14,469 nt of DNA from a virus. A program made the translations under genes and the position numbers. The notes under the pieces were generated by a model. It worked only from the letters and a program-made list of their open reading frames with translations, was not told the origin of the DNA and searched no databases. The stretch lies in the UHGV virus genome UHGV-0142781; one strand, given 5' to 3'. Positions 1 through 14,469 of this stretch are shown here, piece by piece (positions within the stretch are counted from its first letter, which is position 1; each line of letters opens with the position of its first letter).

Positions 1-236
1 GACAGCAACCGGCATGTTCCATTATCAGCAGGCTGTGACCGTTCGACATACCCGGTAAACCAGCGCAGGACCAGACCATCATAACCAACATCGATCCGCA
101 CCATTTTGCCGGTGTAATCTGTCTCTGTCCCCGCCGTAATAAACCCCCGACCGCACGCGTTCAGCTCCAGCACGATATTGCAGTCAATCAGATGGACCGG
201 ATCAGAGGAAAGGTACAGGCGTTTAATTGGTTTCAT
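1..236 (-). CDS. Phage tail protein, N-terminal part (gene runs off window start); weak resemblance to P2 gpD (late control D / hub) N-terminus
   Basis: Reverse-strand ATG at 234-236; my translation begins MKPIKRLYLSSDPVHLIDCNIVLELNACGRGF... and stays open to position 1. The GRGF...G.DG.V...F.GYVE pattern loosely matches my recollection of gpD-family N-termini. Product identity is low-confidence. Confidence 0.45.
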   Translation of the reverse strand, partial: MKPIKRLYLSSDPVHLIDCNIVLELNACGRGFITAGTETDYTGKMVRIDVGYDGLVLRWFTGYVERSQPADNGTCRLL

Positions 237-243
237 CGTTTAA

Positions 244-786
244 TTACCCCAGCGCATCGTTGACCGGCTTTAAGACTTTTTCTTCAAACCAGCTCATTTT
301 GTCGGCTGGTTCATCAGCACCGGCAGCCGGACCCGCGCCCTTTGCCCCTGTTTGCTTGGTGCTGGCCGTCGCGTTGCCTTTTCGGGCCTGTCGTTTTTCC
401 GGGACACTGCCTTTTTCACGCAGGGTGAAACTTACCTGCCAGGCAAGGCGATCCTCCTGCGGTACGGCATCAATCTGACCGGTGAACGTGGCTTCACGAA
501 GGTTGATAGCCGTTGCCGTCGCATTGGCAACACGGTACTTTTTTAACGCGCCGCTGGCTTCGGTTGCGGATGCCAGCTGGAAAAGCCGCTGTAAGACGGC
601 TTCGTCGTCGAATGTCACCAGACCCGACACGCGCAGCTCTTTGGCCTTGATGCCCTGTTCAGCATTGGCCGTGCTCGATGTCTGGCCCGACTGGTCCTTC
701 TCCTGAAACTGCATGGAAGGTGAAACCAGCATGTTTTGCATGGCAATCCCTTCACCATCAAGCGCGAGTAGTGCGGTCTGGCTCAT
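244..786 (-). CDS. Hypothetical phage structural protein (position consistent with gpU-like tail protein)
   Basis: 180-aa ORF with AGGGAAG-type RBS upstream of its ATG; sits between the Ala-rich ORF and the gpD-like ORF on the same strand; host-like GC. Function assigned by position only. Confidence 0.5.
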   Translation of the reverse strand: MSQTALLALDGEGIAMQNMLVSPSMQFQEKDQSGQTSSTANAEQGIKAKELRVSGLVTFDDEAVLQRLFQLASATEASGALKKYRVANATATAINLREATFTGQIDAVPQEDRLAWQVSFTLREKGSVPEKRQARKGNATASTKQTGAKGAGPAAGADEPADKMSWFEEKVLKPVNDALG

Positions 787-1288
787 GTAGCATCTTCCCT
801 AAGTCAGATAACGAATCCCCGATAAACATCATCGCGGCGGTATGCACTGCCGTTGTTTGCGGGATGCCTTTCAGCAATTCAGCGGCAGCAACGGCATAAC
901 TTCCGCTGTAACTGAATGAAAAAATATTCGCACTGGCGGCTTTCAGGTCGTCCAGTCCCTGGCTGAGCGAGGACAGCAAACCGGCCCGTTCCTGAATAAA
1001 TCCCGTAACCTGATTTTTTAGATCTGTTGTGGTGGTACTGACTGCGGCGGCCAGCTGCGCGGCGGCAACACGCTGGGCATTCAGCGCCAGCCGGTTGGTT
1101 GAGACTGATAACGGCGCACTGGCTGGCAATACATCTGCTTTAACCGGCAACTGCATTTTTACTGTGCTGAGTTCTGCGGCCGCTGCCGCCATGCGGCTTA
1201 CCTGCGTAAATACCGGGGCCGGAAATACGGTGGACAGTTTATTCAGTCCCTGCATAAAAGCGTCATGGGTATTTTCCGCCACCATCAT
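758..1288 (-). CDS. Ala/Gly-rich phage protein, possibly a 5'-truncated tape-measure (gpT)-like remnant
   Basis: ORF track gives 758..1552, but that start would overlap the divergent Q start codon. The first plausible internal start is the MM pair at 1283-1288. The frame stays open upstream to 1552, as expected if the gene's 5' end was lost. Composition (poly-Ala, Q/L/S-rich) is tape-measure-like. Confidence 0.35.
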   Translation of the reverse strand: MMVAENTHDAFMQGLNKLSTVFPAPVFTQVSRMAAAAAELSTVKMQLPVKADVLPASAPLSVSTNRLALNAQRVAAAQLAAAVSTTTTDLKNQVTGFIQERAGLLSSLSQGLDDLKAASANIFSFSYSGSYAVAAAELLKGIPQTTAVHTAAMMFIGDSLSDLGKMLHEPDRTTRA

Positions 1289-1545
1289 GACGATAACGTC
1301 ACCACTTCCACCACCACTACCGGATAACAGCTTTTTAGCCAGATATCCCACCGCGTTGGCAGGGCTGAGATAACCGCCTGAATACCGGTTTTTAACGCGC
1401 TCAGGTCTTCCGCTTCCATGTTTTCCACGCTTTTGACGTATACCGTTACCGCCAGGGTGTGGCTGGTTATCTCGCACGCCGTAATTAACGAACCTATCGA
1501 TCACGAATATGACCGCCCATCGGGCTGGTACTTTGGGAAAGCAGC

Positions 1546-2607
1546 ATGACAAAGAAACAGCGTAAAAATAAAAAATTCGGGTCCATGACCGGCAACAAGG
1601 TTGAAACCTTCACGCCAGGGCGCGGAAGCGTGATCACCTTTGGCGAACCAGAACCCATCCTGACGACCGGCACTGATTATCACAATATCTGGTATGACAA
1701 TGAGTATGACCACTGGCGACTCCCGATTGATCGCCTGGCGCTGGCCCAGTTGCCGAACCTTAACGGCCAGCACGGCGGGGTACTGTATGCGCGGCGCAAT
1801 ATGGTGGCCGGTGGCTATATCGGCGGCGGCCTGACGCCTGACCAGGTCGAACAGGCTGTCTTTGATTACCTGCTGTTTGGTGACGTCGCTATCCTGAAAA
1901 TTCGTAACGTATTCGGGGAAGTGATCGACCTGCTGCCGCTGCCGTCGCTGTATCTGCGCTGCCGGAAAGACGGGTCGTTTGCCGTTCTGCAGGAAGGGCC
2001 AGCGCTTATCTATGACCCGGAAGACATCGTTTTCTTTAAAATGTACGACCCTCGCCAGCAGGTGTATGGCCTGCCTGACTATATCGGCGGCATCCATTCG
2101 GTGTTACTCAACAGTGAGGCAACCATCTTCAGGCGCCGTTACTACAATAACGGGGCGCACATGGGCTTTATTCTCTATACCAGCGATCCGAATCTGACGC
2201 TGGAAATGGAAAACGAAATCAAAGAGAAGATCGCCCAGTCCAAAGGGCTGGGTAACTTCCGCAATATGTTTATCAACATCCCGAAGGGCGACCCGGAAGG
2301 GGTTAAAATCCTGCCGGTGGGCGAAGTCAGCGCAAAGGACGAATTTGCCAACATCAAAGGGATCACCGCACAGGATATCTTTACCGCTCACCGTTTCCCC
2401 GCTGGCCTGGCGGGTATCATCCCGACCAATGGCGCGGTAATGGGCAACCCTGAAACCGCCCGCACAACCTATCGCAAGGATGAAGTTATCCCCTTGCAGC
2501 GCAAGCTAATGAACGGCGTCAACAATGACCCGGAGATCCCCGCACACTTGCACCTGGTTTTTGACGTGGATATCCCAGCAATTACCACCGAAAAGGGCGA
2601 AAAATGA
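1546..2607 (+). CDS. Q: Capsid portal protein (P2 gpQ family)
   Basis: 353 aa; motifs FGEPEP, IFRRRYYNNGAHMGFILY, SKGLGNFRNMF and EVSAKDEFANIKGITAQDIFTAHR match my recollection of P2 gpQ. GGGAAAG RBS at 1533-1539. Confidence 0.85.
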   Translation: MTKKQRKNKKFGSMTGNKVETFTPGRGSVITFGEPEPILTTGTDYHNIWYDNEYDHWRLPIDRLALAQLPNLNGQHGGVLYARRNMVAGGYIGGGLTPDQVEQAVFDYLLFGDVAILKIRNVFGEVIDLLPLPSLYLRCRKDGSFAVLQEGPALIYDPEDIVFFKMYDPRQQVYGLPDYIGGIHSVLLNSEATIFRRRYYNNGAHMGFILYTSDPNLTLEMENEIKEKIAQSKGLGNFRNMFINIPKGDPEGVKILPVGEVSAKDEFANIKGITAQDIFTAHRFPAGLAGIIPTNGAVMGNPETARTTYRKDEVIPLQRKLMNGVNNDPEIPAHLHLVFDVDIPAITTEKGEK

Positions 2608-2930
2608 GCGCAGTTAAGTTAAAATCATCCCCATTGTTAGCAATGGTGTGCGGGATGGTGAACATGCGAGTTTTTAAAATTAAATGTCCTGAATGCGGCT
2701 CACCGGCCATCATTCGCAAATCAGACTGGAAAGATAAAAAACTGGCCGATTTATACTGCGCCTGCACGGAAGTTGAATGCGGCCACACCTTTGTTTTTAA
2801 CGCCCAGTTTTCACATACTCTCAGCCCCAGCGGACTGACCGGCAACAAGCTGGTTAAATTTCTGATTGATCGGCTCAAACCAGACGAAAGACAATTCGCT
2901 TTAGATTTGCTAAACAACCATATTAATTAA
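2604..2930 (+). CDS. Ogr/Delta-family zinc-finger transcriptional activator (late-gene activator type)
   Basis: CPEC-x22-C-TEVE-C-GHTF matches the Ogr pattern C-x2-C-x22-C-x4-C-x2-TF (P2 Ogr: CPLC...CQNVNCSATF). ATG at 2604 overlaps the Q stop TGA at 2605-2607 (ATGA). An alternative start at 2664 (MRVFKIKCPEC) gives an Ogr-sized protein. Confidence 0.7.
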   Translation: MSAVKLKSSPLLAMVCGMVNMRVFKIKCPECGSPAIIRKSDWKDKKLADLYCACTEVECGHTFVFNAQFSHTLSPSGLTGNKLVKFLIDRLKPDERQFALDLLNNHIN

Positions 2931-2982
2931 CCTATAAGCACCGAGTATCTTTATTTAAATGTGATATTTATAAGGAAATATA
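2931..2982 (+). promoter_or_regulatory. AT-rich leader of the cargo cassette (possible promoter plus RBS)
   Basis: Very AT-rich stretch (TTTATTTAAATGTGATATTTATAAGGAAATATA) ending in an AAGGA RBS before the ATG at 2983. No specific -35/-10 assigned. Confidence 0.3.
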
Positions 2983-4818
2983 ATGAGCAATTCAAAATAC
3001 ATTAATTTAGATGCGAGAATAAAAAAACTAAAAGAAGTTGTTAAAGATTTAGACACAAACACTTTAGCAACCTACTCTTTTTGGGAAATGTACAAATTTG
3101 GTACATTAGGTCAAAAAATTGAACTACAATCACCAGCACGACAAATCTTATATCTTTTTGGGATTGCATGTTCATCTGCTGAACCAACCGAACCAACTGA
3201 TAATGTTGAGGGTAAGATAAAACAAACAGTAGAGATCCTAAATGATATTTTTACAAAATATATGTTGGCGTACTTTCCAACCAAAGATGATTTAAAATCT
3301 GGATTAGAAGATGAATGGCATAAAGTTAGAGAAGTTGCTATGCCAATGTTTTCAAACTACTTTTTTGAAGGGTTAAAAGTTTCCACTGAAAACTTCAAAG
3401 GGATCATAAAAAATTATTTCAATGGTTTTGAAAATGAAATAAAAACACATTTTGGCTTAGATCACCATGAAATGGTAGAAATTTTAAATCTCATTGGTGA
3501 GCTTATACAGAGCAAATATGACAGATTCCGTGAAATAATGGATACATTAAAAGACGAACATGAGAAATTTAAAGAGAATAATTTTGAAAAACATGAAGAT
3601 TTTATAACATATATGGATGACATGAGGGAGCGTACAAAACATTTAGCACAAGAATTTCATGACTTCCTCAATGGGAGTGTATCATTCAAGTTTGATTCAA
3701 TAAGATGTAAACTTGGTGACGATGTCGTTGATAGTTTTATAAAAGCTTTCGTTACAGAGCGTGGAAACTCATCCGAAATCAAATACATTACTGATGAGAA
3801 TCCATTTTCATATAAACCGATAGTAACTGTAAATAATCTGGATTATATGCTCCCTTCTGCTAACGCAGCTTATGAAGCTATCATTCTTAATCTTGAAAAG
3901 TTTTTTAAAGAGTCAAAACACAATGATAAATTTAGAAAAGCCCGAGACAACAGGCTGGAACATGAGACTTTTTGCACCTTTAGAAATTTCTTCCCTGAAT
4001 CAACTACAATACTTGAAAGTGTATTTGAAACAAACAAATCCCATAATGAACATGATCTGATTATTTTCCATGATAAAACGATTCTTATTGTAGAGGCTAA
4101 AGCATCACCACGCCGCGCTCCATTGAGAGAACCAGCCAGAGCATACATTAGAATTAGAGATGATTTCAAACGTAAATCAGGAATACAAAGCGCATCTGAA
4201 CAAGCAAATAACTTAAGAAATTTAATCATTAATAATGAAAAAACATCATTATATGATAAAAAAGGTAATTTACTATATACCATAAATCGTTGTGACTACG
4301 ACAATATATATTGTATATGTGTCACTAAAGATGATTTCGGAATGCTTGCTACAAATTTAACTTTAATGTTAGAAAAAAAAGAAGATGAACCCTACCCTTG
4401 GGTTATTTGTATTCAAGACTTGAAGTTTTATTTTGATTGCCTTAAGGAAATAGATTTGGATCATGACTATTTCTTAAATTATATTCGTGAAAGAATAAAA
4501 ATACACGGCAAAGCAACGGCATGTGATGAGCTTGAATATGCAGGTGCATACTTGAATTATGGTGGTTTCGATTTCATTAATAAAGAAGTAAACTCTAACG
4601 TTTGTCTTGATATCTCTGAATCACGAGTATTCGATGAAATCCATATCGAAAAAGTTAATGGCAGGAAATATGTTCACCAGATTAAAAAACCTACTTACAG
4701 CATTTTAAATAGAGATAAATTAATTTCTTCTTTAAATTTCAATCACTCAAACAAAGATGCAAAAAAAGCAAAATCAAAAAGAAAGGAACAGAAAAAATCC
4801 AGAAAAAGAAACCGTTAA
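2983..4818 (+). CDS. Cargo protein with central PD-(D/E)xK-like nuclease motif and poly-basic C-terminal tail; candidate defence effector
   Basis: 611 aa, strongly AT-rich. Residues 356-373 read EHDLIIFHDKTILIVEAK (D-x12-ExK, nt ~4048-4101). C-terminal 23 residues are almost all K/R/S. No Walker A motif. Confidence 0.85.
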   Translation: MSNSKYINLDARIKKLKEVVKDLDTNTLATYSFWEMYKFGTLGQKIELQSPARQILYLFGIACSSAEPTEPTDNVEGKIKQTVEILNDIFTKYMLAYFPTKDDLKSGLEDEWHKVREVAMPMFSNYFFEGLKVSTENFKGIIKNYFNGFENEIKTHFGLDHHEMVEILNLIGELIQSKYDRFREIMDTLKDEHEKFKENNFEKHEDFITYMDDMRERTKHLAQEFHDFLNGSVSFKFDSIRCKLGDDVVDSFIKAFVTERGNSSEIKYITDENPFSYKPIVTVNNLDYMLPSANAAYEAIILNLEKFFKESKHNDKFRKARDNRLEHETFCTFRNFFPESTTILESVFETNKSHNEHDLIIFHDKTILIVEAKASPRRAPLREPARAYIRIRDDFKRKSGIQSASEQANNLRNLIINNEKTSLYDKKGNLLYTINRCDYDNIYCICVTKDDFGMLATNLTLMLEKKEDEPYPWVICIQDLKFYFDCLKEIDLDHDYFLNYIRERIKIHGKATACDELEYAGAYLNYGGFDFINKEVNSNVCLDISESRVFDEIHIEKVNGRKYVHQIKKPTYSILNRDKLISSLNFNHSNKDAKKAKSKRKEQKKSRKRNR

Positions 4819-4872
4819 CAAAATATCCTTTTGACGAATTCAAACCAACTGAACATATGGAGAAAATAAAAC

Positions 4873-6228
4873 ATGAGAATGACCGCCCCATTAAAATCAT
4901 TTTCTGATGGATTTTGTGAGAATGACGACATTTTTGAAAGAAAAAAACTTCACGACATTATTATGCGAGTTGCTACTAACGCGCCTGATAAAAGTTTAGT
5001 TTTAGCATTAGATGATAAATGGGGTAATGGGAAAACTTCATTTGTAAAAATGATGGAATCAGAAATAAGCAAAAAACATTCCGATGATTTCGAAGTCATC
5101 TATTTTGATGCATTTAAAAGTGATTATCAGTCGGATCCATTTGTAGCGTTAACTTCCAATATTTATTCGTTGGTTAGTAATGAAGAAGGCAAGCTAAAAA
5201 CATTAGGTGAAAAATTATTAAGTGCTGGTAAAAAACTAGGAGCTTCATTCCTTTTAAATGGTGCGAAGTTTGCAATCAGTACTATTTCAGGTGGGATGGT
5301 TTCTGGTACTGTAGTCGAAAAGGCAAGTGATACAATATCAGAATCCATATCATCACCTGTAGAAAAATACATAGAAGAAAAGATAAAAGCAAGTGAGAGT
5401 GAGTTTGCTACTATTGAGCAATTTGGAAATTTGTTAACTGAGATATACAAAGAAAGTGGAAAGAAAATATTTTTTATAATTGATGAATTAGACCGTGCAC
5501 GACCTGATTTTTCATTGGATTTATTAGAAAAGATAAAACATATATTCTCAGTAGAGGGTATTATTTTTCTATTGGTCGTCAATCGCGAACAATTTGAAAA
5601 AAGCATTGAGTCTCGATATGGCAATATAAACTCAAGATTGTATCTCAATAAATTTGTTCATTACTGGTTTTCGCTTCCCAAAACAAGCTGTTTATCTGAT
5701 GGTTGCTTAAATGGATATACTTATTCAACTATAAAACGATATTTACTTTCCATTGATAATGGAAACGACTTATTAAGTAGAAATGGTCCGCTTCTTAATA
5801 CACTATCATTGCTTTTGGAAATAAATGGAGCTTCTTTGAGAGAGGCGGAACGCTGTTACTCGGTATTTTCGGTTATCGAAGATGTCAATAAAGTAAACTA
5901 CTATACAAGTGATGCATATAAAGTAGCTTTGGGACTTGTTGTTTTCCTGAAAGTACATAACTCACAGTTGTTAACTGAAATTGTCTTAAAAAAAATCGTG
6001 TTAAAAGAAGCGATAGCCAAGCTTTTAATATACACAGTTCATCACCACAATATAATCGAAGCTCAATTCATTGAATATATCTTAAAGTACCATTACGCAA
6101 CAAATGAAGAATTAATAGAAGAAAGGAAGCAAAGAACATACTCTGATATAGAAGGTGGATATGGTCGAAGAACTCCCCTATTAGAAGGCATGTTTAAAAC
6201 AGTTGAGGGGTTTGATATTAGTTCTTAA
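4873..6228 (+). CDS. KAP-like P-loop NTPase; candidate defence partner
   Basis: 451 aa, AT-rich. Walker A-like DDKWGNGKTSF (res 47-57, nt 5011-5043) and Walker B FFIIDELDR (res 200-208), about 150 residues apart with a hydrophobic stretch between, as in KAP NTPases. 54-bp gap after the upstream gene, same strand. Confidence 0.85.
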   Translation: MRMTAPLKSFSDGFCENDDIFERKKLHDIIMRVATNAPDKSLVLALDDKWGNGKTSFVKMMESEISKKHSDDFEVIYFDAFKSDYQSDPFVALTSNIYSLVSNEEGKLKTLGEKLLSAGKKLGASFLLNGAKFAISTISGGMVSGTVVEKASDTISESISSPVEKYIEEKIKASESEFATIEQFGNLLTEIYKESGKKIFFIIDELDRARPDFSLDLLEKIKHIFSVEGIIFLLVVNREQFEKSIESRYGNINSRLYLNKFVHYWFSLPKTSCLSDGCLNGYTYSTIKRYLLSIDNGNDLLSRNGPLLNTLSLLLEINGASLREAERCYSVFSVIEDVNKVNYYTSDAYKVALGLVVFLKVHNSQLLTEIVLKKIVLKEAIAKLLIYTVHHHNIIEAQFIEYILKYHYATNEELIEERKQRTYSDIEGGYGRRTPLLEGMFKTVEGFDISS

Positions 6229-6319
6229 ACTCTATTTTTTCGCGGACTCTTTGCCGCCCGCCCCGCATCATCGCGCAGATCGACGCAACAAGTTGCGACG
6301 GTCAGCGCGATTGCATTCA

Positions 6320-8932
6320 TTATTTTGGGTGACTACCATCCACACCCGCCAGCATTTTTTGATACTCCCCGACCGGATCAAACCGCAGGCGCGTGGCATC
6401 AATACCGTGGTTATCACGCAGACGGTCCCATAATTTATTCACCGTCCGTGACTCATCGAGTAATTGACGCGTTATCAACTCGCCGCCAGCACTGCCCCGA
6501 TAAACTTTGCCGCCAATCTCCAGACGGCTCCCCATTAACAGCGAAACAGCCTGAATCTCTGAAATCTCAACCGAACACAACGCCGCATCAGCCAGCAGAC
6601 TGGCAACCTCAGGGGCAAGCGCTGCCCGCCTGGCTTTTTCAGCCGCCGATCTGGCCTCGGTTTTTTTAACGGCAGAACGCCAGGCAACATCTAATTCGCT
6701 CCCTGGCTCATAAGGTGATCCGCTTTGCCGCCTTTTGAATGGTGCTTCACGTAGTCGCCGCATCAATTTTCGCCGCGTTGGCTGGTCCATATTTTCAAAA
6801 TCGACGATTTCCTCTTCTGATTCTTCTGTCATACCCTCCACATCACGCGAAAAATCGGTGATTTTTTCGTCTTCCGTAGAGTTATTGACAGAACTCCAAG
6901 CGTCGCCGGTTGGCGACGGCAAAAGGTCAACCCCCAAACCGGGGCCGTTTTTGGCCTCGGTGGTAGCTTTAGATTTGGCGCAGATTTTCCACTTAACCAG
7001 ACGGGTACAAATACGGGAGGCATCACCCAGACGCGGCGACCAGACCCCGAAAACCTTTTCGGGGATCTCACAATAAGCATTCATTTCATCAGCTGGCTGA
7101 TAGGCCAGACGGACGACATAGTTTTCTCGCGGGATCAAAACCCCACCCTGGCGGATGATGTAGGTAGCAAAGCACCCGACATCGGCAGCGGCGCAAACCG
7201 CATCCATTGCAGGATCCACAAGCAACGGCGCACCGCGTTTGAAGGTATTGTCAATTTTCTGGCGGGTCGTGATTTGATTGCTCAGTTTGCGCAGCTCGCG
7301 GTAAACCGATATGGGCGGCTGTCCGATAGGCTGAAACTGGCGGATACGGTGAAGCGATGCCCAGGCCATTGCATATTTGGCGGTTTCATTCAGCGGCTTG
7401 CCGCTTTCGTCGTCCAGTTCACCGGCCAGCGCGTGGCCGTCGATATTCTTCGAAATGTATTTAGCGATATATGCCGTTGCCGACCCTTTCCGTGGGTCCA
7501 TTTTTTTTGACTTGAAACGAGCACCGGTATTGCGGCCCAGCTCATCGCGGTCTTCCGCAATGAAGTAGGCGCGAAGGATCGCAACCGTGGCTTTGACTTG
7601 CTCTTGTGGCATAAACAGCAACGCGTGCCAGTGTGGTGTCCCATCGTGATGCGGCTCGGCGACACGGAAGCCATAAGGGCGCAAATCTTCGCGTTTCAGT
7701 TTGGCGGTTGCACGGTTCCATACACGGCATAAATAGCGCTGCGCCTGGGCGACGGTGGAATGATTCCATTTGGCATTATGGTGGCCGGACGCAATATTAC
7801 TGTGATATTTCGACGGGCAAGTGATGGTCAGGAAAATACCAACATCGCCGCGACTTTGGGCGACAAGTTCAACGCCAGCCATTCTGGTCATAAGCTCATG
7901 GCGACGAATAGCCGGGTTAGACGTGGATTTATTAATCATTTCCTCAAGCGACGAAACGTTGCCGTCTTCGTCTACCAGTTCATGACTTTTGAAAAAATCC
8001 CGGTTTTTACGGCGCTGTTCCTGCCACTCGATCAGGCTGGAAGCGCTAACGTAGGCGTGCGCTTTTTTATTTACCGCGCCAACAGCACGCAGCTGGTTCT
8101 CGCGCCAGTCACAACGCAAGCGCCAGATTTTTCGCCCCCACCAGTCAGGCGAAGCCATACGCAAAATGGCCGTGCATATGCGCTCGCGTTCCCACGGCGC
8201 ATACCATGCAGGCGGCACAATACGAAGCGCCAGCATTTCTCGGCCCAGGTGGCAATAAAGCCAGTCCAGTTCTTCGACGTTCATGTCGGAAACATTCCGC
8301 CCTAGGGCTTCGCATTCCGTCCCCAGCATTTCAGCCATGCGGCTGGCGATCTCATTAGCGGCGCTTAGTGCATCCCGCTTTGTGAAATCAGCCAGACGTT
8401 GCCAGCGCCCGAACCAGTACGCGGCCAGTTCGCCGGTGATATCAGGCGAAACACCTTGCCTTGTGCGTACAACATCAAGACGCAGCAATGATTTTTTCAC
8501 GGTTCCCATAAGAAAATCATTGGTGTGTCTGGTTTCACGGTTGACCCGTAACCACTCAATTTTTTTTCGCCAGACTTCACGAATGAAGAACGGCTCTGCT
8601 AATAAACGCGCTTCGACACCTTCCGGCGTATTGGTCCAGGCTGCCGTCGTAGATTTGGCGGCTTCCATTTCCTGCCGGATTAAATTTTGATGGGCGGCCA
8701 GTGGCAGGCCGCACGGTTCGTACCTGTCCAGCGCCTGGATAAGCGCGTTACGGTCCCGCACCTCGTCGGGGTTGTAACCGGCGTGTCTGAAGATGTGATC
8801 GATGTGTTTTTTTACGGCAGGATGATGCGCCACCGCCCCGGCAAGCGGGGCGATTTTTTTCGGTTCGTAGGTGTACAGGCCAACAGCTGGGCGCGGCGCG
8901 TTCCAGGGCCATGCAAAAGCTGTGTCAGACAT
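6320..8932 (-). CDS. A: Replication initiation protein (P2 gpA family rolling-circle endonuclease)
   Basis: About 870 aa at the expected position upstream of the cargo slot; identified by size, synteny and general resemblance to gpA. ORF track starts at a GTG at 8950; the ATG at 8930-8932 (MSDTAF...) is the more likely start. Confidence 0.85.
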   Translation of the reverse strand: MSDTAFAWPWNAPRPAVGLYTYEPKKIAPLAGAVAHHPAVKKHIDHIFRHAGYNPDEVRDRNALIQALDRYEPCGLPLAAHQNLIRQEMEAAKSTTAAWTNTPEGVEARLLAEPFFIREVWRKKIEWLRVNRETRHTNDFLMGTVKKSLLRLDVVRTRQGVSPDITGELAAYWFGRWQRLADFTKRDALSAANEIASRMAEMLGTECEALGRNVSDMNVEELDWLYCHLGREMLALRIVPPAWYAPWERERICTAILRMASPDWWGRKIWRLRCDWRENQLRAVGAVNKKAHAYVSASSLIEWQEQRRKNRDFFKSHELVDEDGNVSSLEEMINKSTSNPAIRRHELMTRMAGVELVAQSRGDVGIFLTITCPSKYHSNIASGHHNAKWNHSTVAQAQRYLCRVWNRATAKLKREDLRPYGFRVAEPHHDGTPHWHALLFMPQEQVKATVAILRAYFIAEDRDELGRNTGARFKSKKMDPRKGSATAYIAKYISKNIDGHALAGELDDESGKPLNETAKYAMAWASLHRIRQFQPIGQPPISVYRELRKLSNQITTRQKIDNTFKRGAPLLVDPAMDAVCAAADVGCFATYIIRQGGVLIPRENYVVRLAYQPADEMNAYCEIPEKVFGVWSPRLGDASRICTRLVKWKICAKSKATTEAKNGPGLGVDLLPSPTGDAWSSVNNSTEDEKITDFSRDVEGMTEESEEEIVDFENMDQPTRRKLMRRLREAPFKRRQSGSPYEPGSELDVAWRSAVKKTEARSAAEKARRAALAPEVASLLADAALCSVEISEIQAVSLLMGSRLEIGGKVYRGSAGGELITRQLLDESRTVNKLWDRLRDNHGIDATRLRFDPVGEYQKMLAGVDGSHPK

Positions 8933-9146
8933 TGGATGCCCCGCTATCACCCTCCCGCTGGGAATGTTTTTCGATTAGCGGGTCGAGTAACACATTGAAA
9001 GAAATCAACAGCGTATTTGCGGCTTCACTTCCGGCGAGAACACCCGCGAACGTTGCGTGTGCAAGGGCCAGTGTTTTGGCTTCGTTAAGCGCAGCCAGTG
9101 CGCCGCGCTGGTATTCCGAAAGACCGTTATTAATTTTGTTAGCCAT
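8925..9146 (-). CDS. Small hypothetical phage early protein
   Basis: 73 aa; its ATG overlaps the dam stop (TGATG at ~9144-9148), suggesting translational coupling; position matches the small ORFs before A in P2. Confidence 0.6.
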   Translation of the reverse strand: MANKINNGLSEYQRGALAALNEAKTLALAHATFAGVLAGSEAANTLLISFNVLLDPLIEKHSQREGDSGASNV

Positions 9147-10111
9147 CAGAAGACCACCTCGTCAGCCGTCCCACCCCACACGGAATAACCAGCACAAGGG
9201 CCACAGTCAGGACAGCACCCACCACCTGCACGACGACAAGTTGCACAGACTTTGAGGACGCCGATCACTTCACTGGCGGCCCCTCTGGTAATGGCGTTCG
9301 CGCTGACAGAACGGTTAACGCTGATTTCCTGGAAGTTGAAAGCGCGATAAATCTCGCGGGTAGATGGGGTGTCGCTATTGGACAGGATCACCGGCGAACC
9401 AGTAAGGCGGTTAATATCCAGCAGGGCGGCAGCTAACTGGCGATGCTCTTTAATCCCAAACGGGGCGGTGTGGTATTGGGTGAAATTAGCGGTTTCGCTT
9501 GTTGGCAGGTATGGCGGATCGCAGTAGATAACCGCGTCACTACCAATCATAATTTTTAACGTGCTCTGGAAATCGCAGCACACGAAAATGGCTTTCGTGT
9601 CGTTAGCTTTTTCAGTGAATAAACGGATCTGTTCTTCCGGGAAGTAAGGCGGGGTTTTGTGTCGCCCAAAGGGAACGTTATATCCACCCTGTTGGTTGTA
9701 GCGTACTACGCCGTTATATCCGTGACGGTTCAGGTAAAGAAATTGTGCTGCACGAAGAATCTTGCCCGTGTCCGGTCCGTCCTCAAACACATTGCGCGAT
9801 GACAGAAGGTCATAGGCGCGGGCGTTGAAATCATCGCGGATCCACTTATAGCCGTCTTTATCGCCGTACACTTTAAACAGCGGGCGAGCAGCGTCGATCA
9901 CCGCATCAGGCCAGCGGGTTATCTGGCGATACAGGTTAATTAAATCTGGGTTGATATCACCCAGGATATAACGGCGATATTCAGTATTGAGGAAAACAGA
10001 AGCACCGCCGACAAACGGTTCCACCAGGCAATCGGCTTTCGGCAGAATCGTTAGCAAATCAGGCATAACCCGGCCTTTGCCACCGGGCCATTTAACGAGA
10101 GATCGAATCAT
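9146..10111 (-). CDS. dam: DNA adenine methyltransferase (Dam family) with Cys-rich C-terminal extension
   Basis: N-terminal KWPGGK, EPFVGG and catalytic DPPY (res 198-201) motifs; GGAGAAAG RBS. C-terminal about 35 residues carry six Cys (CATC...CC..C..C). Confidence 0.9.
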   Translation of the reverse strand: MIRSLVKWPGGKGRVMPDLLTILPKADCLVEPFVGGASVFLNTEYRRYILGDINPDLINLYRQITRWPDAVIDAARPLFKVYGDKDGYKWIRDDFNARAYDLLSSRNVFEDGPDTGKILRAAQFLYLNRHGYNGVVRYNQQGGYNVPFGRHKTPPYFPEEQIRLFTEKANDTKAIFVCCDFQSTLKIMIGSDAVIYCDPPYLPTSETANFTQYHTAPFGIKEHRQLAAALLDINRLTGSPVILSNSDTPSTREIYRAFNFQEISVNRSVSANAITRGAASEVIGVLKVCATCRRAGGGCCPDCGPCAGYSVWGGTADEVVF

Positions 10112-10181
10112 TTTTACTTTCTCCAGGGTGCAAGAAGCCCGACGCGTTAGCGCCTGTTTCTTTTTTGTGGGTAGTTAGTTG

Positions 10182-10571
10182 TTAATTGACTGCGTTATCT
10201 GGCGCGGGTGGTTTGTCGCGTATCGCCTGAATTTCGGCGCGTGGTGCTGCATAGTCCTTAAATTCCCACGGCATTGATGCTGCAAATTCGGAAAGGCGCT
10301 TAATGCCCATCAAAAGGCACGTTTGCTCCTTTTCGGTTAGATTTCCGTAAGTACAACCCAGCTGTTTAGCGGTCAGCTTCGGCATTCCGGCTATGTATCT
10401 GGACGCATCGTTTGCCAGGATGAAAATCACCTTTTTACAGGCATCATCTAGGCGGTTAAAACGGGTTGCAGTGTCGTTCACGCGTGAGGCGTTCAAACTG
10501 GCTTGTAGCCGCGCCCGTTGCTCTAAGAACTGGCGGCGGCCTGGTTGTTGTTCTGTCTTATCCATCAACAT
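10182..10571 (-). CDS. Hypothetical phage early protein
   Basis: ORF track starts at a GTG at 10577; the ATG at 10569-10571 has a GGGGAGG RBS 5 nt upstream. About 129 aa, phage-typical GC, same strand as the early operon. Confidence 0.6.
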   Translation of the reverse strand: MLMDKTEQQPGRRQFLEQRARLQASLNASRVNDTATRFNRLDDACKKVIFILANDASRYIAGMPKLTAKQLGCTYGNLTEKEQTCLLMGIKRLSEFAASMPWEFKDYAAPRAEIQAIRDKPPAPDNAVN

Positions 10572-10586
10572 AACCACCTCCCCGAA

Positions 10587-10808
10587 CTACGCAAAGATGC
10601 CCATTAAGCGGGAAAACCAGCGGCGCTTATTACGCGGGCGCGACATGAACGGTACACGGCAGTTTTTAACAAATTGAACATCTGCCGCTTTCGGCTGGAA
10701 GAACCGCCCGTCCGGGGTTTCAATCCAGCCGCGTTGATGCTGACGGTGGGTGATCTGCTGGCCGTGCGTGAGCAGACTAGCGAGTGAAGGGCATTGTGTT
10801 AATTCCAT
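10587..10808 (-). CDS. Small hypothetical phage early protein
   Basis: ORF track gives 10587..10880; the internal ATG at 10806-10808 (MELTQCP...) is preceded by GGAG. GC-rich, same strand as neighbours. Start uncertain. Confidence 0.45.
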   Translation of the reverse strand: MELTQCPSLASLLTHGQQITHRQHQRGWIETPDGRFFQPKAADVQFVKNCRVPFMSRPRNKRRWFSRLMGIFA

Positions 10809-10946
10809 GTTGATCTCCGTCATATTGAAAAGATGCCGGGATACGACCCCACGCCCGGCGCGTGTTTCCTGTGATAACATCGCTATGCCTGTGTAACTTT
10901 GAGCAGTGAATCAGGCATAACAATCACCAACACAGAAGGAGTTGTA

Positions 10947-11426
10947 ATGAAATTCAATGTGTTTTTTAAAAAAGACCACGGATCACACTGGGTGCTTTCC
11001 GATGATTCCCCCCTCTTTGAAAGTCCACTATTTGAAACAAGACCTAAAGCCATTGATGACCTTGAGAACTTTGTAGGCCTTATGGAATCGCCAATCTTTA
11101 TTAAGGCTGGTGACGATATTAATTCTGGCGATACAGAAAACTGTCCATCTGTAGTAATTTCTTTAAAACAGCATGAATCGCTATGGGGCTGGGAATTATT
11201 TATCTCAAAAAATGGACAACTTTCTAAAGTTACCGAAAGTTCAGGTAATGGCTTTGACTCATTAGAATTAGCAAAGCAAAGTGCCCAGTTTTTCCTTAAT
11301 GCCATTATCGACGCTCCTATTCTGGATCAAGCCGATGTCGCTATCCCCGGCATGCACTTCTCAAAATCTTTCGAGGAAACGCACCACATTGGTGACACTC
11401 ACCCATCTAGTAAATGGTTCAAATAA
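10947..11426 (+). CDS. AT-rich hypothetical protein (moron), antisense to the early operon
   Basis: ATG at 10947 with AGGAG RBS at 10936-10940 (ORF track extends to 10899). 159 aa, visibly AT-richer than neighbours; no recognisable motifs. Confidence 0.7.
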   Translation: MKFNVFFKKDHGSHWVLSDDSPLFESPLFETRPKAIDDLENFVGLMESPIFIKAGDDINSGDTENCPSVVISLKQHESLWGWELFISKNGQLSKVTESSGNGFDSLELAKQSAQFFLNAIIDAPILDQADVAIPGMHFSKSFEETHHIGDTHPSSKWFK

Positions 11427-11430
11427 TCCA

Positions 11431-11778
11431 TCACTGTGGTGTTATCGTTTTTCTTGTGCGAGGTGGTACATCTCGCACGGTTTCTTCATCAACAATTAAC
11501 TCATAAACTCTGATGCTGCTATCACCTTTTGATACGTCATCAAATACCTGAAAAAGAAAACTCATGAATTGCTCATAAGTGACGCTGGGTTCAACATACC
11601 CACCAGTAACCTCAATTAATGGTGTTAGTCCTGAATTATCTGCTAACGAAACGCAGTCCAACTTATCCAAACGGAAAAAGTAATTACCGCAAGGTGTTCT
11701 TTTATCCTTAATCCGTATAAATACATTTGATAACGCTGTATGACTATCTGAGAGTTTAAAGATTTTTGCCGTGTCCAT
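11431..11778 (-). CDS. AT-rich hypothetical protein (moron) immediately downstream of cox
   Basis: 115 aa starting 22 nt after the cox stop on the same strand; its stop lies 4 bp from the stop of the convergent 10947-11426 gene. AT-rich relative to cox. Confidence 0.6.
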   Translation of the reverse strand: MDTAKIFKLSDSHTALSNVFIRIKDKRTPCGNYFFRLDKLDCVSLADNSGLTPLIEVTGGYVEPSVTYEQFMSFLFQVFDDVSKGDSSIRVYELIVDEETVRDVPPRTRKTITPQ

Positions 11779-11800
11779 TTTATTCAGCCCTGTAAGTTGC

Positions 11801-12076
11801 TTATGATGGATTGCCCAGACCCAACCACATTAACCACCCTTCCCTAATTTCCTTCGGGCGGCTCTCATACGCCATTTTCATTCCGTTGTTCCATGCTGGG
11901 AGGTAGACCCAGTACTCACCTGCCCGCCCGGAAGTTGATTGCGGATCGGTCATCTCAACTACGGGTAGCTTTCCTTTTTCAATCATCCCCTTCACCGCTG
12001 CCGGTGTTTTACCAATGAGTTTTGCGAACTCCTGATATGGGACGGCATCTGTGCTTAACGCGATCTGTTTAACCAT
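11801..12076 (-). CDS. cox: Cox (excisionase / lytic-switch regulator)
   Basis: 91 aa; translation tracks my recollection of P2 Cox over most of its length (AIPYQEFAKLIGK, DPQSTSGRAGEYWVYLPAWNNG, ESRPKEIREGWLMWLGLG). GAGGG RBS. Confidence 0.9.
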   Translation of the reverse strand: MVKQIALSTDAVPYQEFAKLIGKTPAAVKGMIEKGKLPVVEMTDPQSTSGRAGEYWVYLPAWNNGMKMAYESRPKEIREGWLMWLGLGNPS

Positions 12077-12192
12077 TTAAGGCCCTCACAAGTTTAAGAA
12101 TCGTCACCAATGGCTTATAGTTGCCTTTGATGTTCATTTCTAAACATCAAACAGTCTACATCTAAATCAAATGGTATTGAGATCTAAACACT
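12077..12192. promoter_or_regulatory. Immunity switch region between cox and C (early and repressor promoters with operator repeats)
   Basis: Three direct repeats TCTAAACA (12139-12146), TCTAAATC (12161-12168), TCTAAACA (12183-12190), exactly 22 bp apart. A TATAAG -10-like element on the minus strand (~12113-12118) faces cox. Confidence 0.6.
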
Positions 12193-12492
12193 ATGTCAAA
12201 CGCCTTAAACGAGAAAATTGTACTCATCAGAAAGTCTGAGTATCTCAGCAGACAGCAACTAGCTGATTTAACAGGCATTCCCTATGGCACTTTAAGTTAT
12301 TACGAAAGTGGTCGTTCTACACCGCCCACGGACGTAATGATGAGGATTTTGCAAATGCCCCAATTCAGCAAATACACGTTGTGGTTTATGACCGATCAGG
12401 TTGCTCCCGAAGCCGGTCAGATAGCACCGGCCCTCGCACACTTTGGGCAAGATGTAACAACATCGCAGCACTCAGACCAAAAGATTGGTTAA
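12193..12492 (+). CDS. C: Immunity repressor C
   Basis: 99 aa; near-collinear with my recollection of P2 C (EKIVLIRKSEYLSRQQLADLTGIPYGTLSYYESGRSTPPTDVMM...), same length. Confidence 0.9.
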   Translation: MSNALNEKIVLIRKSEYLSRQQLADLTGIPYGTLSYYESGRSTPPTDVMMRILQMPQFSKYTLWFMTDQVAPEAGQIAPALAHFGQDVTTSQHSDQKIG

Positions 12493-12637
12493 CCATTCAC
12501 CAGGCGCATCTTTATTACAAAATTTGTTTACTTGTTGCCAAATACAACAAACACAACAAGTTTGTGAAATCTAAGCGCAAGGGAAAATTAACAGCAGCAA
12601 AGAAAACTCAACCTAGCACCATTCATTTGGGGGTCTT

Positions 12638-13645
12638 ATGACAATTAAGAAACTCGATGATGGTCGTTATGAAGTGGATATCAGACCTGCAGGGCGCAAC
12701 GGAAAGCGCATCCGCAGGAAATTTGACAAGAAAAGTGAGGCTGTAGCTTTTGAGAAACACACTCAATACAACCATCACGATAAAGAATGGCTGGCTAAAC
12801 CGACAGATAAGCGGCATCTGTCTGAATTAACAAAAGTCTGGTGGGATCTGAAAGGCAAGCATGAAGAACACGGAAAATCCAATTTGGGTAAGATTGAAAT
12901 CTTTACCCGGATCACTGATGACCCTTGCGCGTTCCAGATAACCAAAGCGCTTATTAGCCAGTACAGCATGACTCGCAGAGGGCAAGGCATAAAACCGGCC
13001 AGTATTAACCGCGACCTTACCTGCTTGAGTGGTATGTTTACTGCGCTAATTGATGCGGAGTTGTTTTTTGGCGAACACCCTTTCAGAGGGATGAAAAAGC
13101 TCAAGGAGCAGAAACCAGAAACAGGCTATCTGACGCAGGAAGAAATAACATTGTTGCTTGCCAATCTTGACGGGGACAACAAGAAAATCGCGATTCTCTG
13201 TTTAAGTACCGGCGCTCGATGGGGTGAGGCCGCGAAACTGAAAGCTGAGAACGTAATACAGAATCGGGTGACGTTCGTTAAAACAAAGACGAACAAACCA
13301 CGTACTGTCCCTATCTCTGAGGAAGTAGCTGTAATGATTGCGGGTAAAGGGTATCTGTTCCCAGATGCCTCATACCCGAAGTTCAGGCGAACAATGAAAG
13401 ATGTAAAACCAGATCTACCGGACGGGCAAGCAACTCACGCATTGCGTCACAGTTTTGCTACCCACTTTATGATTAACGGCGGGAGTATCATCACCTTGCA
13501 GAGAATACTGGGACATTCACGGATAGAGCAGACAATGGTCTATGCGCACTTTGCCCCGGAGTATCTTCAGGATGCTGTTTCACTCAATCCGCTACGTGGT
13601 GGTGTTGACTCCCAGAGTGTCCACACTGTGTCCACAGTAGGGTAG
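12638..13645 (+). CDS. int: Tyrosine integrase (P2 Int family)
   Basis: 335 aa; N-terminus MTIKKLDDGRYEVDIRPAGRNGKRIRRKFDKKSEAVAFEK and C-terminal HALRHSFATHFM...LGHSRIEQTMVYAHFAPEY match P2 Int as I recall it. GGGGG RBS. Confidence 0.95.
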   Translation: MTIKKLDDGRYEVDIRPAGRNGKRIRRKFDKKSEAVAFEKHTQYNHHDKEWLAKPTDKRHLSELTKVWWDLKGKHEEHGKSNLGKIEIFTRITDDPCAFQITKALISQYSMTRRGQGIKPASINRDLTCLSGMFTALIDAELFFGEHPFRGMKKLKEQKPETGYLTQEEITLLLANLDGDNKKIAILCLSTGARWGEAAKLKAENVIQNRVTFVKTKTNKPRTVPISEEVAVMIAGKGYLFPDASYPKFRRTMKDVKPDLPDGQATHALRHSFATHFMINGGSIITLQRILGHSRIEQTMVYAHFAPEYLQDAVSLNPLRGGVDSQSVHTVSTVG

Positions 13646-13726
13646 TTTATTATGGCTTTCAGTGGTCTTGCGTGCCGCGCAAACCCGCATTGCACCGCTG
13701 AAAGCCCATGTTACCTACCCTGAAAA

Positions 13727-13753
13727 ACGCCCTTACGCAGGCTTATTTTTTGC
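13727..13753. other. Candidate attL core (P2 att-core-like sequence) marking the prophage-host junction
   Basis: CGCCCTTACGCAGGCTTATTTTTTG is close to the reverse complement of the P2 core as I recall it (AAAAAATAAGCCCGTGTAAGGGAGATT); lies about 80 bp after the int stop, just before the clpA terminator. Confidence 0.45.
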
Positions 13754-13804
13754 CTGCCGTTTAAACTCCCTGAATATCCCAATTCAAATCACTTTTATCA
13801 GGCG

Positions 13805-13829
13805 AAAAAAAACCGGGCATTACGCCCGG
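13805..13829 (-). terminator. Rho-independent terminator of clpA
   Basis: Minus strand reads GCCGGGC-GTAAT-GCCCGG followed by eight U (stem 13813-13818 / 13824-13829, U-run 13805-13812), about 20 bp after the clpA stop. Confidence 0.75.
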
Positions 13830-13848
13830 CTGATTAGGTGATTAAAGA

Positions 13849-14469
13849 TTAATGTGCAGCTTCTGGCTTGTGCTTTTGCGCACTCTGGAAACCATAAGTC
13901 AGCTCATTTTTCTCTTTATCCAGCGCAACGGTCACCTGGCCACCATCCACCAGCGAACCGAACAGCAGTTCGTTAGCCAATGGTTTTTTCAGGTTATCCT
14001 GGACAACACGCGTCATTGGACGTGCGCCCATTGCGCGGTCGTAGCCTTTCTCTGCCAGCCAGTCACGTGCTTCCTGGCTCACTTCCAGAGAGACACCTTT
14101 CTGATCCAGCTGAACCTGAAGCTCGACGATAAACTTATCAACAACCTGATGAATCACCTCGGTAGAGAGATGATCAAACCAGATAATGTTGTCGAGGCGG
14201 TTACGGAATTCCGGCGTAAACACTTTTTTGATTTCGCCCATTGCATCAGTACTATTGTCCTGATGAATCAACCCAATCGATTTACGCTCAGTTTCACGCA
14301 CACCGGCGTTGGTGGTCATGACCAGCACCACATTGCGGAAATCCGCTTTACGCCCGTTATTGTCGGTCAGCGTGCCGTTATCCATCACCTGCAACAGCAG
14401 GTTAAAGACATCCGGGTGTGCTTTTTCGATTTCATCCAGCAGCAGTACCGCATGCGGATGCTTAATAAC
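13849..14469 (-). CDS. clpA: ATP-dependent Clp protease ATP-binding subunit ClpA, C-terminal part (gene runs off window end)
   Basis: Translation ...LLQVMDNGTLTDNNGRKADFRNVVLVMTTNAG...ALDKEKNELTYGFQSAQKHKPEAAH matches the ClpA C-terminus nearly residue for residue; stop at 13849-13851. Confidence 0.95.
   Translation of the reverse strand, partial: VIKHPHAVLLLDEIEKAHPDVFNLLLQVMDNGTLTDNNGRKADFRNVVLVMTTNAGVRETERKSIGLIHQDNSTDAMGEIKKVFTPEFRNRLDNIIWFDHLSTEVIHQVVDKFIVELQVQLDQKGVSLEVSQEARDWLAEKGYDRAMGARPMTRVVQDNLKKPLANELLFGSLVDGGQVTVALDKEKNELTYGFQSAQKHKPEAAH

Follow-up and report, generated by a model that had tools for sequence, protein, structure and literature searches.

The first 1,552 nucleotides of the window, which is the whole 14,469-nucleotide stretch of the virus genome UHGV-0142781 analysed here, are very probably the scar that a compound internal deletion left in a half-deleted Peduoviridae prophage with the gene order of Irrigatiovirus and HP1. 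The element as a whole is an ordinary defective (cryptic) prophage of the P2 family, a member of the Irrigatiovirus/HP1-type Peduoviridae that is not P2-ordered. Its left part contains the following features:

1..236, minus strand: 5' end (first 78 codons) of orf35, an HP1 orf35-type baseplate hub/spike gene with the N-terminus MKPIKRLYLS...
244..786, minus strand: orf34, an intact HP1 orf34-type baseplate complex protein of 180 aa (PF25759 HP1_ORF34, 1.1e-53, full length; PHROG 1398)
758-1552, minus strand: a 264-aa ORF of the ORF list with a TTG start, Ala-rich and open up to the portal start
758..1383, minus strand: orf33', the 5'-truncated HP1 orf33 homologue (SI7 gp22), with codons 35-242 and the stop kept and the first 34 codons deleted
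1381..1383, no strand: junction 1, between orf33 and the J fragment, with the 3-bp microhomology AAT in a side-by-side alignment with the intact prophage L002
1381..1468, minus strand: J island, an 88-bp mid-gene piece of baseplate J/gp47 (approximately codons 295-324) that keeps its native direction and is read out of the J frame in the 264-aa ORF
1468..1468, no strand: junction 2, between the J fragment and terL, with a 1-bp overlap (T)
1469..1549, plus strand: 3' remnant of terL, its last 26 codons and stop; the translation ISHAVINEPIDHEYDRPSGWYFGKAA, followed by the stop, matches the end of the 603-aa terL product of L002 residue for residue
1546..2607, plus strand: the intact portal gene, 353 aa (Pfam Phage_portal, 3.4e-13; PHROG 68, 2.8e-118)

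The portal protein is 33% identical to P2 gpQ (E 1e-56) and has the same length as in intact relatives. As the initial annotation had noted, no terminase ORF precedes its gene; in the ORF list, the largest ones on the plus strand of 1-1552 have 43-114 aa. This absence is not a chance effect, since the C-terminal 26 residues of terL are kept before the portal gene, with the terL stop still overlapping the portal ATG (ATGA). DNA homology to the terL-portal region of L002, of two further relatives (L012, L013) and of Salmonella phage SI7 starts exactly at position 1468.

A blastn comparison of 1-2700 with L002 resolved the region into three collinear segments, 6-1383, 1381-1468 and 1468-2700, which correspond to 20001-21378, 24833-24920 and 37897-39129 of that prophage. 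The positions in SI7 are equivalent and the break points against 15 other intact prophages are identical. The J island, which is only 88 bp long, is 94.3-98.9% identical to the J genes of 15 intact relatives (E 1.5e-33 to 2.9e-36), always with the same end points. The element lacks 3.45 kb and 12.98 kb that intact relatives have, about 16.4 kb in total. The shared segments have 93.7-97% nucleotide identity to SI7, and intact prophages of E. coli and Citrobacter are similarly close (94-97%).

From these data we propose the following origin. The ancestral element would have had the order found in the annotated genomes of SI7, the E. coli 2011C-4251 prophage and HP1: terL, portal and ogr read in one direction and, in the other, scaffold, capsid, terS, head completion, sheath/tube, lysis, tape measure, baseplate W/J/I, fibre, fibre assembly, orf33, orf34 and orf35, ending at att. 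One illegitimate join would have removed about 3.45 kb, from codon 34 of orf33 back to the middle of J, and a second one about 12.98 kb, between mid-J and a point 26 codons short of the terL end, with the 88-bp J fragment staying between the two. A parental genome of about 32.3 kb would have been reduced in this way to a 15.9-kb remnant bounded by att sites. Scans of IMG/VR and JGI metagenomes with both junction 26-mers returned no matches and no single-deletion intermediate; as to whether one event or two produced both joins, no intermediate was found to tell.

The three minus-strand ORFs that had been described as abutting the portal gene are present, at 758-1552, 244-786 and from 236 running off the left end, but their identities turned out to be different from those proposed. 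The "Ala/Gly-rich ORF" of 264 aa is a chance chimera: its residues 57-264 are the HP1 orf33 homologue (PHROG 1677) and its first 56 codons are out-of-frame J and antisense terL sequence. The orf33' segment is 96.6% identical to L002 (20001-21378) and 94.9% identical to SI7, and its protein alignment to the 242-aa intact gene begins at residue 35; the match to HP1 orf33 itself has 29% identity (E 6e-25). The ORF had been considered tape-measure-like, but it has no Pfam match, and tblastn with P2 gpT gave an E-value of 1.5. The protein encoded by orf34 occurs identically in 9838 blocks of the collection, and all ten of the places shown are within fuller prophages with the upstream tail genes kept.

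For the left-end gene, a gpD-like N-terminus had been suggested. BLASTP against P2 gpD gave an E-value of 0.48; instead, the full gene, which encodes 574 aa, extends left of the window and is complete in a longer copy (L003, 6967-8691), has 42% identity to HP1 orf35 (E 9e-158) and matches PHROG 2258, 'baseplate protein', at 1e-275. The part inside the window is likewise recognised by residues 1-78 of HP1 orf35 (tblastn, window 236-3, E 1.6e-14). A search for PF05954 gave no match at E <= 1, and the only other hits were sub-threshold, to Phage_base_V/Gp5_C and vgr_GE. Weak matches to baseplate-hub PHROGs would allow a role analogous to gpD. On the basis of Pfam, BLASTP and tblastn, none of the three ORFs is a tape-measure, gpU or gpD gene.

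These assignments bear on the reading of the initial annotation, a single deletion in a P2-ordered prophage that fused the DNA preceding Q with the middle of a tape-measure gene and left T'-U-D. The 264-aa ORF is indeed Ala-rich, and the ORFs are placed with respect to the prophage end similarly to T-U-D in P2. Nevertheless, we regard this origin as extremely improbable. None of the P2 proteins gpT, gpU, gpD, gpO, gpN and gpP has a match in 1-1552 (all E >= 0.38), the body of the ORF is an HP1 orf33 homologue, relatives have the real tape measure (704 aa, PF10145) five genes upstream and none of it is left here, and the junction consists of two breaks flanking a J-gene island. Of the proposed deletion, the junction directly upstream of the portal gene and the loss of terminase, capsid, lysis, tape measure, sheath, tube, baseplate and fibre genes thus stand, whereas the P2 order, the gene identities and the simple junction do not.

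Prophages can collapse in short-read assemblies, and the first five bases of the window are unlike those of all relatives, which hints at a contig end; the join could accordingly be imagined as a chimeric or collapsed contig that falsely connects the ends of an intact prophage. There is hardly any room for such an artefact. The same junctions occur at 99.9-100% identity in nine independent contigs from different samples and from three assembly sources (NCBI, Logan, ENA), always in the same chromosomal context, and the deletion is therefore real and apparently clonal. Further, one of these contigs, an 805-kb NCBI contig (L043), carries the whole element and spans from yegQ to clpA, and a collapse would not yield an 88-bp J island with microhomologies of 1-3 bp.

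Where the contigs reach the flanks, the attL side is covered by L003/L043 and L004/L044, of which only the former pair contains yegQ, and L043-L046 contain clpA. Indirect evidence points to a host that is probably Citrobacter and not E. coli. The core of attL falls within the terminator of CyaR, at the gene's 3' end; cyaR is among the listed integration sites of P2-type phages (PMC3032704). The two att copies are 15,883 bp apart in L043. Upstream of the window, where D, ogr and attR had been expected, orf35 continues and is followed by about 640 bp without coding sequence, the att core and cyaR/yegQ; ogr had been expected after D and is located just downstream of the portal gene (2655-2930). 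As a remote possibility, the att site marks a breakpoint of chromosomal rearrangement, with yegQ/cyaR on one side and clpA on the other, perhaps from a prophage-mediated inversion across the terminus.

The remaining features of the window are:

2655..2930, plus strand: ogr, an Ogr/Delta zinc-finger late activator of 91 aa (PF04606, 2.6e-17; PHROG 603)
2983..6228, plus strand: two-gene cargo with low GC content (30-34%), encoding a 611-aa protein of no assigned function and a 451-aa KAP NTPase (PF07693, 3.4e-39)
6320..8932, minus strand: the replication initiator gpA (PF05840, 4.9e-107; called as 870 aa in L003)
9146..10111, minus strand: Dam-type N6-adenine methyltransferase (PF02086, 1.4e-57)
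11801..12076, minus strand: cox (PF10743, 5.9e-43)
12193..12492, plus strand: C immunity repressor, 99 aa (84% identity to P2 C, E 7e-66)
12638..13645, plus strand: tyrosine integrase (PF24624, PF00589)
13730..13756, plus strand: attR core of 27 bp, CCCTTACGCAGGCTTATTTTTTGCCTG, a direct repeat of the attL core that is also found at 6302-6328 of L003, inside CyaR

For ogr, a 108-aa ORF starting at 2604 is a longer alternative call. The gene directly follows the portal gene also in SI7 and in E. coli prophages, and the integrase is identical to the protein of E. coli prophages at the yegQ/cyaR site.

By Pfam and PHROG, the element has the hallmarks of the Peduoviridae: a P2-family portal, a gpA rolling-circle initiator, Cox, a C-type repressor, a tyrosine integrase and an Ogr/Delta activator. 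Its late organisation is of the Irrigatiovirus/HP1 type, as seen from the nucleotide similarity to SI7 and from the orf33-orf34-orf35 block next to att. The morphogenesis set of the family is not complete, terL being reduced to its last 26 codons and J to 88 bp, and from att to att the gene list of L043 contains no large or small terminase, scaffold, capsid, sheath, tube, tape measure, fibre or lysis genes; of the morphogenesis genes, just the portal and orf33'-35 are left. Because this set is missing, we consider the element a defective member of the Peduoviridae and not a viable phage. It is phage-derived, bounded by att repeats and located at a known phage integration site, as is typical for a cryptic prophage. 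With three leftover tail genes joined to the portal gene and about 16.4 kb lost, it should, as far as gene content can tell, be unable to form virus particles or to lyse the cell.

The early part is in a different state. Full-length genes are retained for int, C, cox, gpA/ori, dam, ogr and portal, as is the KAP-NTPase cassette, in agreement with the earlier proposal of a remnant that keeps immunity, replication and cargo. From these intact ORFs, the element would probably still give P2-type immunity, and it is probably passed on vertically as a cryptic prophage. An induction experiment with mitomycin C, as had been suggested, would be uninformative for a P2-type C repressor, since P2 is not SOS-inducible.

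The portal gene now lacks the upstream terL and late-promoter region. A sigma-70 scan of 1-3100 found no more sites than in shuffled sequences and none on the plus strand upstream of the portal gene. A scan for Ogr-dependent late promoters (TGT-N12-ACA; TGTA..TACA dyad) gave one candidate dyad, in the terL-scaffold spacer of L002 that is deleted here, and no consistent set. The portal gene and orf33'-orf34-orf35 are probably silent passengers whose upstream late control regions were lost, as judged solely from the lost upstream DNA and the lack of sigma-70-like sites on the relevant strand.

The cargo sits in the hotspot between gpA and portal that has been described in PMC9122126. It matches PADLOC PDC-S20 (8.9e-72), with an additional sub-threshold match to NERD (E 0.011). 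The KAP-NTPase cassette is a defence candidate, and the element possibly confers cargo-mediated defence against phages. The exact 611-aa protein was seen in deleted-form copies only. As no intact parent carrying this cargo between these flanks turned up, the ancestral state is deduced from relatives with 94-99% identity.

With int, cox, C, gpA, ogr and portal all intact, one could also picture a helper-dependent 'hitcher' or incipient satellite, which would excise by int/cox, replicate by gpA, be packaged by an infecting intact Irrigatiovirus and so spread the defence cassette. The element has 0.49 of the parental length; it could be packaged, for example, as a 2 x 15.9 kb dimer fitting a 32-kb head, and its Ogr may cross-talk with the late promoters of the helper. 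Intact relatives of the element abound in Enterobacteriaceae, and hitcher elements are widespread (PMC11389934), both of which we count for this reading. If it were true, the remnant would be a satellite caught at birth, spreading the KAP-NTPase/611-aa cassette. We consider it very unlikely, though, as all nine copies are 99.9-100% identical in one flank context, which is a clonal, vertical pattern, the junction is absent from the scanned IMG/VR viral contigs, and the gene fragments at the junction resemble random damage and not adaptation. Moreover, cos was not located: a search for a P2-type cos gave nothing within 5 mismatches, and the HP1 cosL had an identical 9-mer near attL that was not significant (E about 0.9), with no exact match in eight relatives.

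A P4-like or other phage satellite was also considered and rejected: replication is by gpA and not by an alpha primase, satellite-type genes (sid/psu, delta) are absent, and the copies share one context at 99.9-100% identity.

The element opens no new question. It offers a clean case, resolved to the base, of decay in a P2-family prophage, in which the lethal morphogenesis and lysis block would have been lost by illegitimate recombination and the genes for immunity and replication retained along with the cargo of the defence hotspot, in line with how prophage domestication is generally seen. The main value is for annotation: gene calls that span the junction (264 aa, 248 aa, 176+44 aa) are chimeric artefacts, and the presence of portal, orf34 and orf35 is here no sign of a viable phage.

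Among known phages, P2 (Peduovirus P2) shares with the element the family, the C repressor (84%), the portal (33%), the gpA, Cox and Ogr families and a defence hotspot between gpA and portal. In contrast, the order of its tail genes differs, its T, U and D have no sequence homology to the window genes, its ogr follows D and not the portal gene, and a P2-type cos is absent here. Haemophilus phage HP1 (Hpunavirus) has the same succession of fibre, fibre assembly, orf33, orf34 and orf35 followed by the genome end near attP, with similarity of 29% for orf33, via the Pfam family for orf34 and of 42% for orf35, and also has the portal gene downstream of terL on the opposite strand; unlike the element, it has no ogr after the portal gene and a different immunity region. 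Given the 84% identity of its C repressor to P2 C, the element is a mosaic with a P2-type early and an HP1-type late part.

SI7 (Irrigatiovirus SI7, NC_049460) and the E. coli 2011C-4251 prophage at cyaR/yegQ (NZ_CP027388) have the same gene order as the window at both ends: orf33-34-35 (gp22-24), terL-portal-ogr, gpA, dam and cox. At the C-int end, the E. coli prophage is likewise close, with 98.3% identity, whereas SI7 reaches only 72-82% in this region. The window lacks about 948-13923 and 14012-17447 of SI7 (the genes from terL to fibre assembly, plus the beginning of gp22), and a different cargo lies between its ogr and gpA. Finally, the 'ogr-D'' cryptic P2 remnant of E. coli K-12 is likewise a non-viable P2-family prophage at the 3' end of cyaR that was reduced by deletion. 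Whereas nothing but ogr and a portion of D is left in K-12, the element described here has lost only the central morphogenesis block and keeps about half of its genome, with all early, immunity and replication genes and the cargo.

The ORF table and the sequence both confirm the initial observation that the portal gene has no upstream terminase ORF: no long plus-strand ORF lies 5' of it, and three minus-strand ORFs are found there.

Portal gene and ORFs upstream of it
From 236 past the left window edge, minus strand: left-end gene
244-786, minus strand: 180-aa ORF (PF25759)
758-1552, minus strand: 264-aa ORF
1546-2607, plus strand: portal gene (Pfam Phage_portal; PHROG 68, 2.8e-118; 33% identity to P2 gpQ)

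The initial annotation had read the left-end gene as gpD-like at its N-terminus and the Ala/Gly-rich 264-aa ORF as tape-measure-like; neither reading was borne out. In tblastn searches of 1-1552, P2 gpT, gpU, gpD, gpO, gpN and gpP reached a best E-value of only 0.38, whereas orf33, orf34 and orf35 of Haemophilus phage HP1 matched at 7e-18, 5e-36 and 1.6e-14, so that an assignment to P2 T/U/D is rejected. The 180-aa protein belongs to PF25759 ('HP1 ORF34 baseplate complex protein', Pfam 1.1e-53), which it matches over its full length. The left-end gene, whose full length of 574 aa was taken from an identical contig, encodes a protein with 42% identity to HP1 orf35 (PHROG 2258, 'baseplate protein'); it is not gpD, as it shows no similarity to P2 gpD in BLASTP (E 0.48) and lacks PF05954, with only sub-threshold V/gp5/VgrG-like signals. 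Nor is the main part of the 264-aa ORF a tape measure: it belongs to PHROG 1677 and is homologous to HP1 orf33 and gp22 of Salmonella phage SI7.

By megablast, the region was located in three Salmonella phages of the genus Irrigatiovirus (SI7, SW3 and SW5; Peduoviridae) as well as in 19 complete E. coli genomes; in each of them it is broken into three separate places. One gene order is common to annotated SI7, an intact prophage of E. coli (NZ_CP027388) and HP1: ogr ← portal ← terL, then scaffold, capsid, terS, head completion, tail completion, sheath, tube, lysis, chaperones, tape measure, DUF2590 (baseplate W position), baseplate J, a tail protein (baseplate I position), fibre, fibre assembly, orf33, orf34, orf35 and att. 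In this phage type ogr thus follows the portal, and the late operon ends, on the att side, with the orf33-35 block. In the E. coli relatives, an AbiH abortive-infection gene lies between att and the orf35 end (16957-17922 of the intact E. coli prophage L002, and the matching position in L031, L033, L036-L038 and L040); it is absent from SI7 and the window's element, and this is a second variable cargo locus.

Aligned to the intact E. coli prophage L002 by blastn, the window resolves into three collinear pieces.

Window pieces and their positions in L002
6-1383: 20001-21378
1381-1468: 24833-24920, within the baseplate J gene (E 1.5e-33)
1468-2700: 37897-39129

Segments of 3,454 and 12,976 bp are missing, 16,430 bp in total, which bears out the proposed deletion directly 5' of the portal. 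The end points were identical against 15 further intact prophages, including that of Citrobacter meridianamericanus BR102 (97.3% identity over the tail part, 98.9% over the J fragment). Microhomology at the joins is limited to AAT (1381-1383) and T (1468), which points to illegitimate recombination without an IS element or repeat. In translation, 1469-1549 yields exactly the last 26 terL residues, with the stop still overlapping the portal ATG, the first 34 codons of orf33 are missing, and the J piece lies out of its own frame inside the 264-aa ORF. This ORF, noted initially as open all the way to the portal start, is therefore no real gene but a chimera that arose by chance from antisense terL, J in the wrong frame and 5'-truncated orf33 (orf33'); gene callers disagree on it (248 aa, or 176 + 44 aa).

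The 27-bp direct repeat CCCTTACGCAGGCTTATTTTTTGCCTG occurs at 13730-13756 and again 2.15 kb beyond the left window edge (6302-6328 in the identical contig L003), the two copies being 15,883 bp apart in the 805-kb NCBI contig L043. On the left, the repeat forms the terminator end of a full-length CyaR sRNA (Rfam RF00112, 105 bits); the cyaR locus is documented as an integration site of P2 type and harbours an 'ogr-D'' remnant in K-12 (PMC3032704). Together with the missing 16,430 bp, this distance gives a parental genome of about 32.3 kb, 51% of which was lost.

Genes kept full-length, and ORFs of a low-GC region
orf34 and orf35
portal and ogr
low-GC cargo pair, between gpA and portal
gpA and dam
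fil-like gene (PF10893, precomputed for identical contigs)
10899/10947-11426, plus strand: 159/175-aa ORF, no Pfam or PADLOC match
11431-11778, minus strand: 115-aa ORF, no Pfam or PADLOC match
cox
12193-12492: C repressor, 84% identical to P2 C
int

GC is also lower (40-44%) in a second region, 10750-12250, between the fil-like gene and cox. Relatives vary at this place: L010 and L011 carry IS insertions and L013 has other genes, so the region may represent a further variable slot.

Exact copies of the portal protein and of the cargo protein each occur on 9 contigs, drawn from a single NCBI genome (GCA_030850205.1), from Logan assemblies (four runs) and from ENA metagenome scaffolds. That the junction is an assembly artefact is excluded, since all of these contigs share the deletion and are 99.9-100% identical to the window, and every contig reaching a flank has the same flank: L003/L043 and L004/L044 include the attL side, with yegQ itself present only in L003/L043, and L043-L046 include the clpA side. 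Junction 26-mers were absent from IMG/VR and JGI metagenomes, and megablast found no junction in complete E. coli genomes. This distribution argues for one deletion event, inherited vertically in one, apparently clonal lineage. A different internal deletion in the related prophage CP024881.1 (L035, 1517-4433), where terS is directly followed by a truncated 557-aa tape measure and head completion, sheath, tube and lysis genes are missing, shows that such decay is recurrent and independent within this phage group. Positions 1-5 (GACAG) differ from every relative, including otherwise 100% identical contigs (ACGAA, L003 8456-8460), and are likely an assembly artefact at the end of the source contig.

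With all genes for DNA packaging, lysis and, except for portal and orf34/35, head and tail assembly absent, the element is a defective prophage. As initially proposed, the remnant keeps immunity, replication and cargo: C, gpA and the cargo pair are all full-length. The deletion would have deprived the portal of terL and of the spacer between terL and scaffold, which corresponds in position to the divergent P/O late promoters in the P2 annotation, and the orf33'-35 block of all late DNA 5' of it. Prediction gave no sigma-70-like site 5' of the portal. Taken together, these points make portal and orf33'-35 probably unexpressed passengers. The C/cox/int/gpA set should still confer P2-type immunity and possibly allows excision and replication. 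P2-type C repressors are not SOS-sensitive, and mitomycin C induction would therefore be negative even for an intact phage.

The cargo (2983-6228) consists of two genes with a GC content of 30-34% in the gpA-portal hotspot, described as a defence hotspot by Rousset et al. (PMC9122126). The 451-aa protein is a KAP P-loop NTPase matching the PADLOC candidate PDC-S20 (8.9e-72). The 611-aa protein has no family match except a sub-threshold one to NERD nuclease-related (E 0.011, residues 338-417), and its exact sequence occurs only in copies of the deleted element. The pair may provide phage defence.

The right edge (13730-13848) comprises attR and the clpA terminator, the left flank (L003 4791-6328) yegQ, cyaR and attL. 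These flanks, yegQ/cyaR and clpA-clpS-cspD-macBA, come from loci far apart in E. coli. In sister lineages with ~95% host identity, int likewise adjoins clpA (L013, L015) and orf35 adjoins yegQ (L034); the att site thus coincides with a chromosomal rearrangement breakpoint older than the deletion, which may reflect a prophage-mediated inversion across the terminus. Identities to E. coli of 86.7% for clpA and 80-86% for the mdtD-yegQ flank indicate that the host would be another enterobacterium, probably Citrobacter as judged by the closest species-representative prophage.

The element did not qualify as a satellite. The only two less ordinary readings, namely that the half-genome is mobilised by a helper and that a chromosomal rearrangement at the att site is associated with the prophage, have no positive support. 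It is a defective member of the Peduoviridae and a mosaic: the immunity region is P2-type, with a C repressor 84% identical to P2 C, whereas the late region is of Irrigatiovirus/HP1 type, without detectable similarity to P2 T/U/D. We regard it as a well-resolved but ordinary case of a defective prophage, whose nearest conceptual precedents are the ogr-D' remnant that K-12 carries at this site and, more broadly, cryptic prophages.
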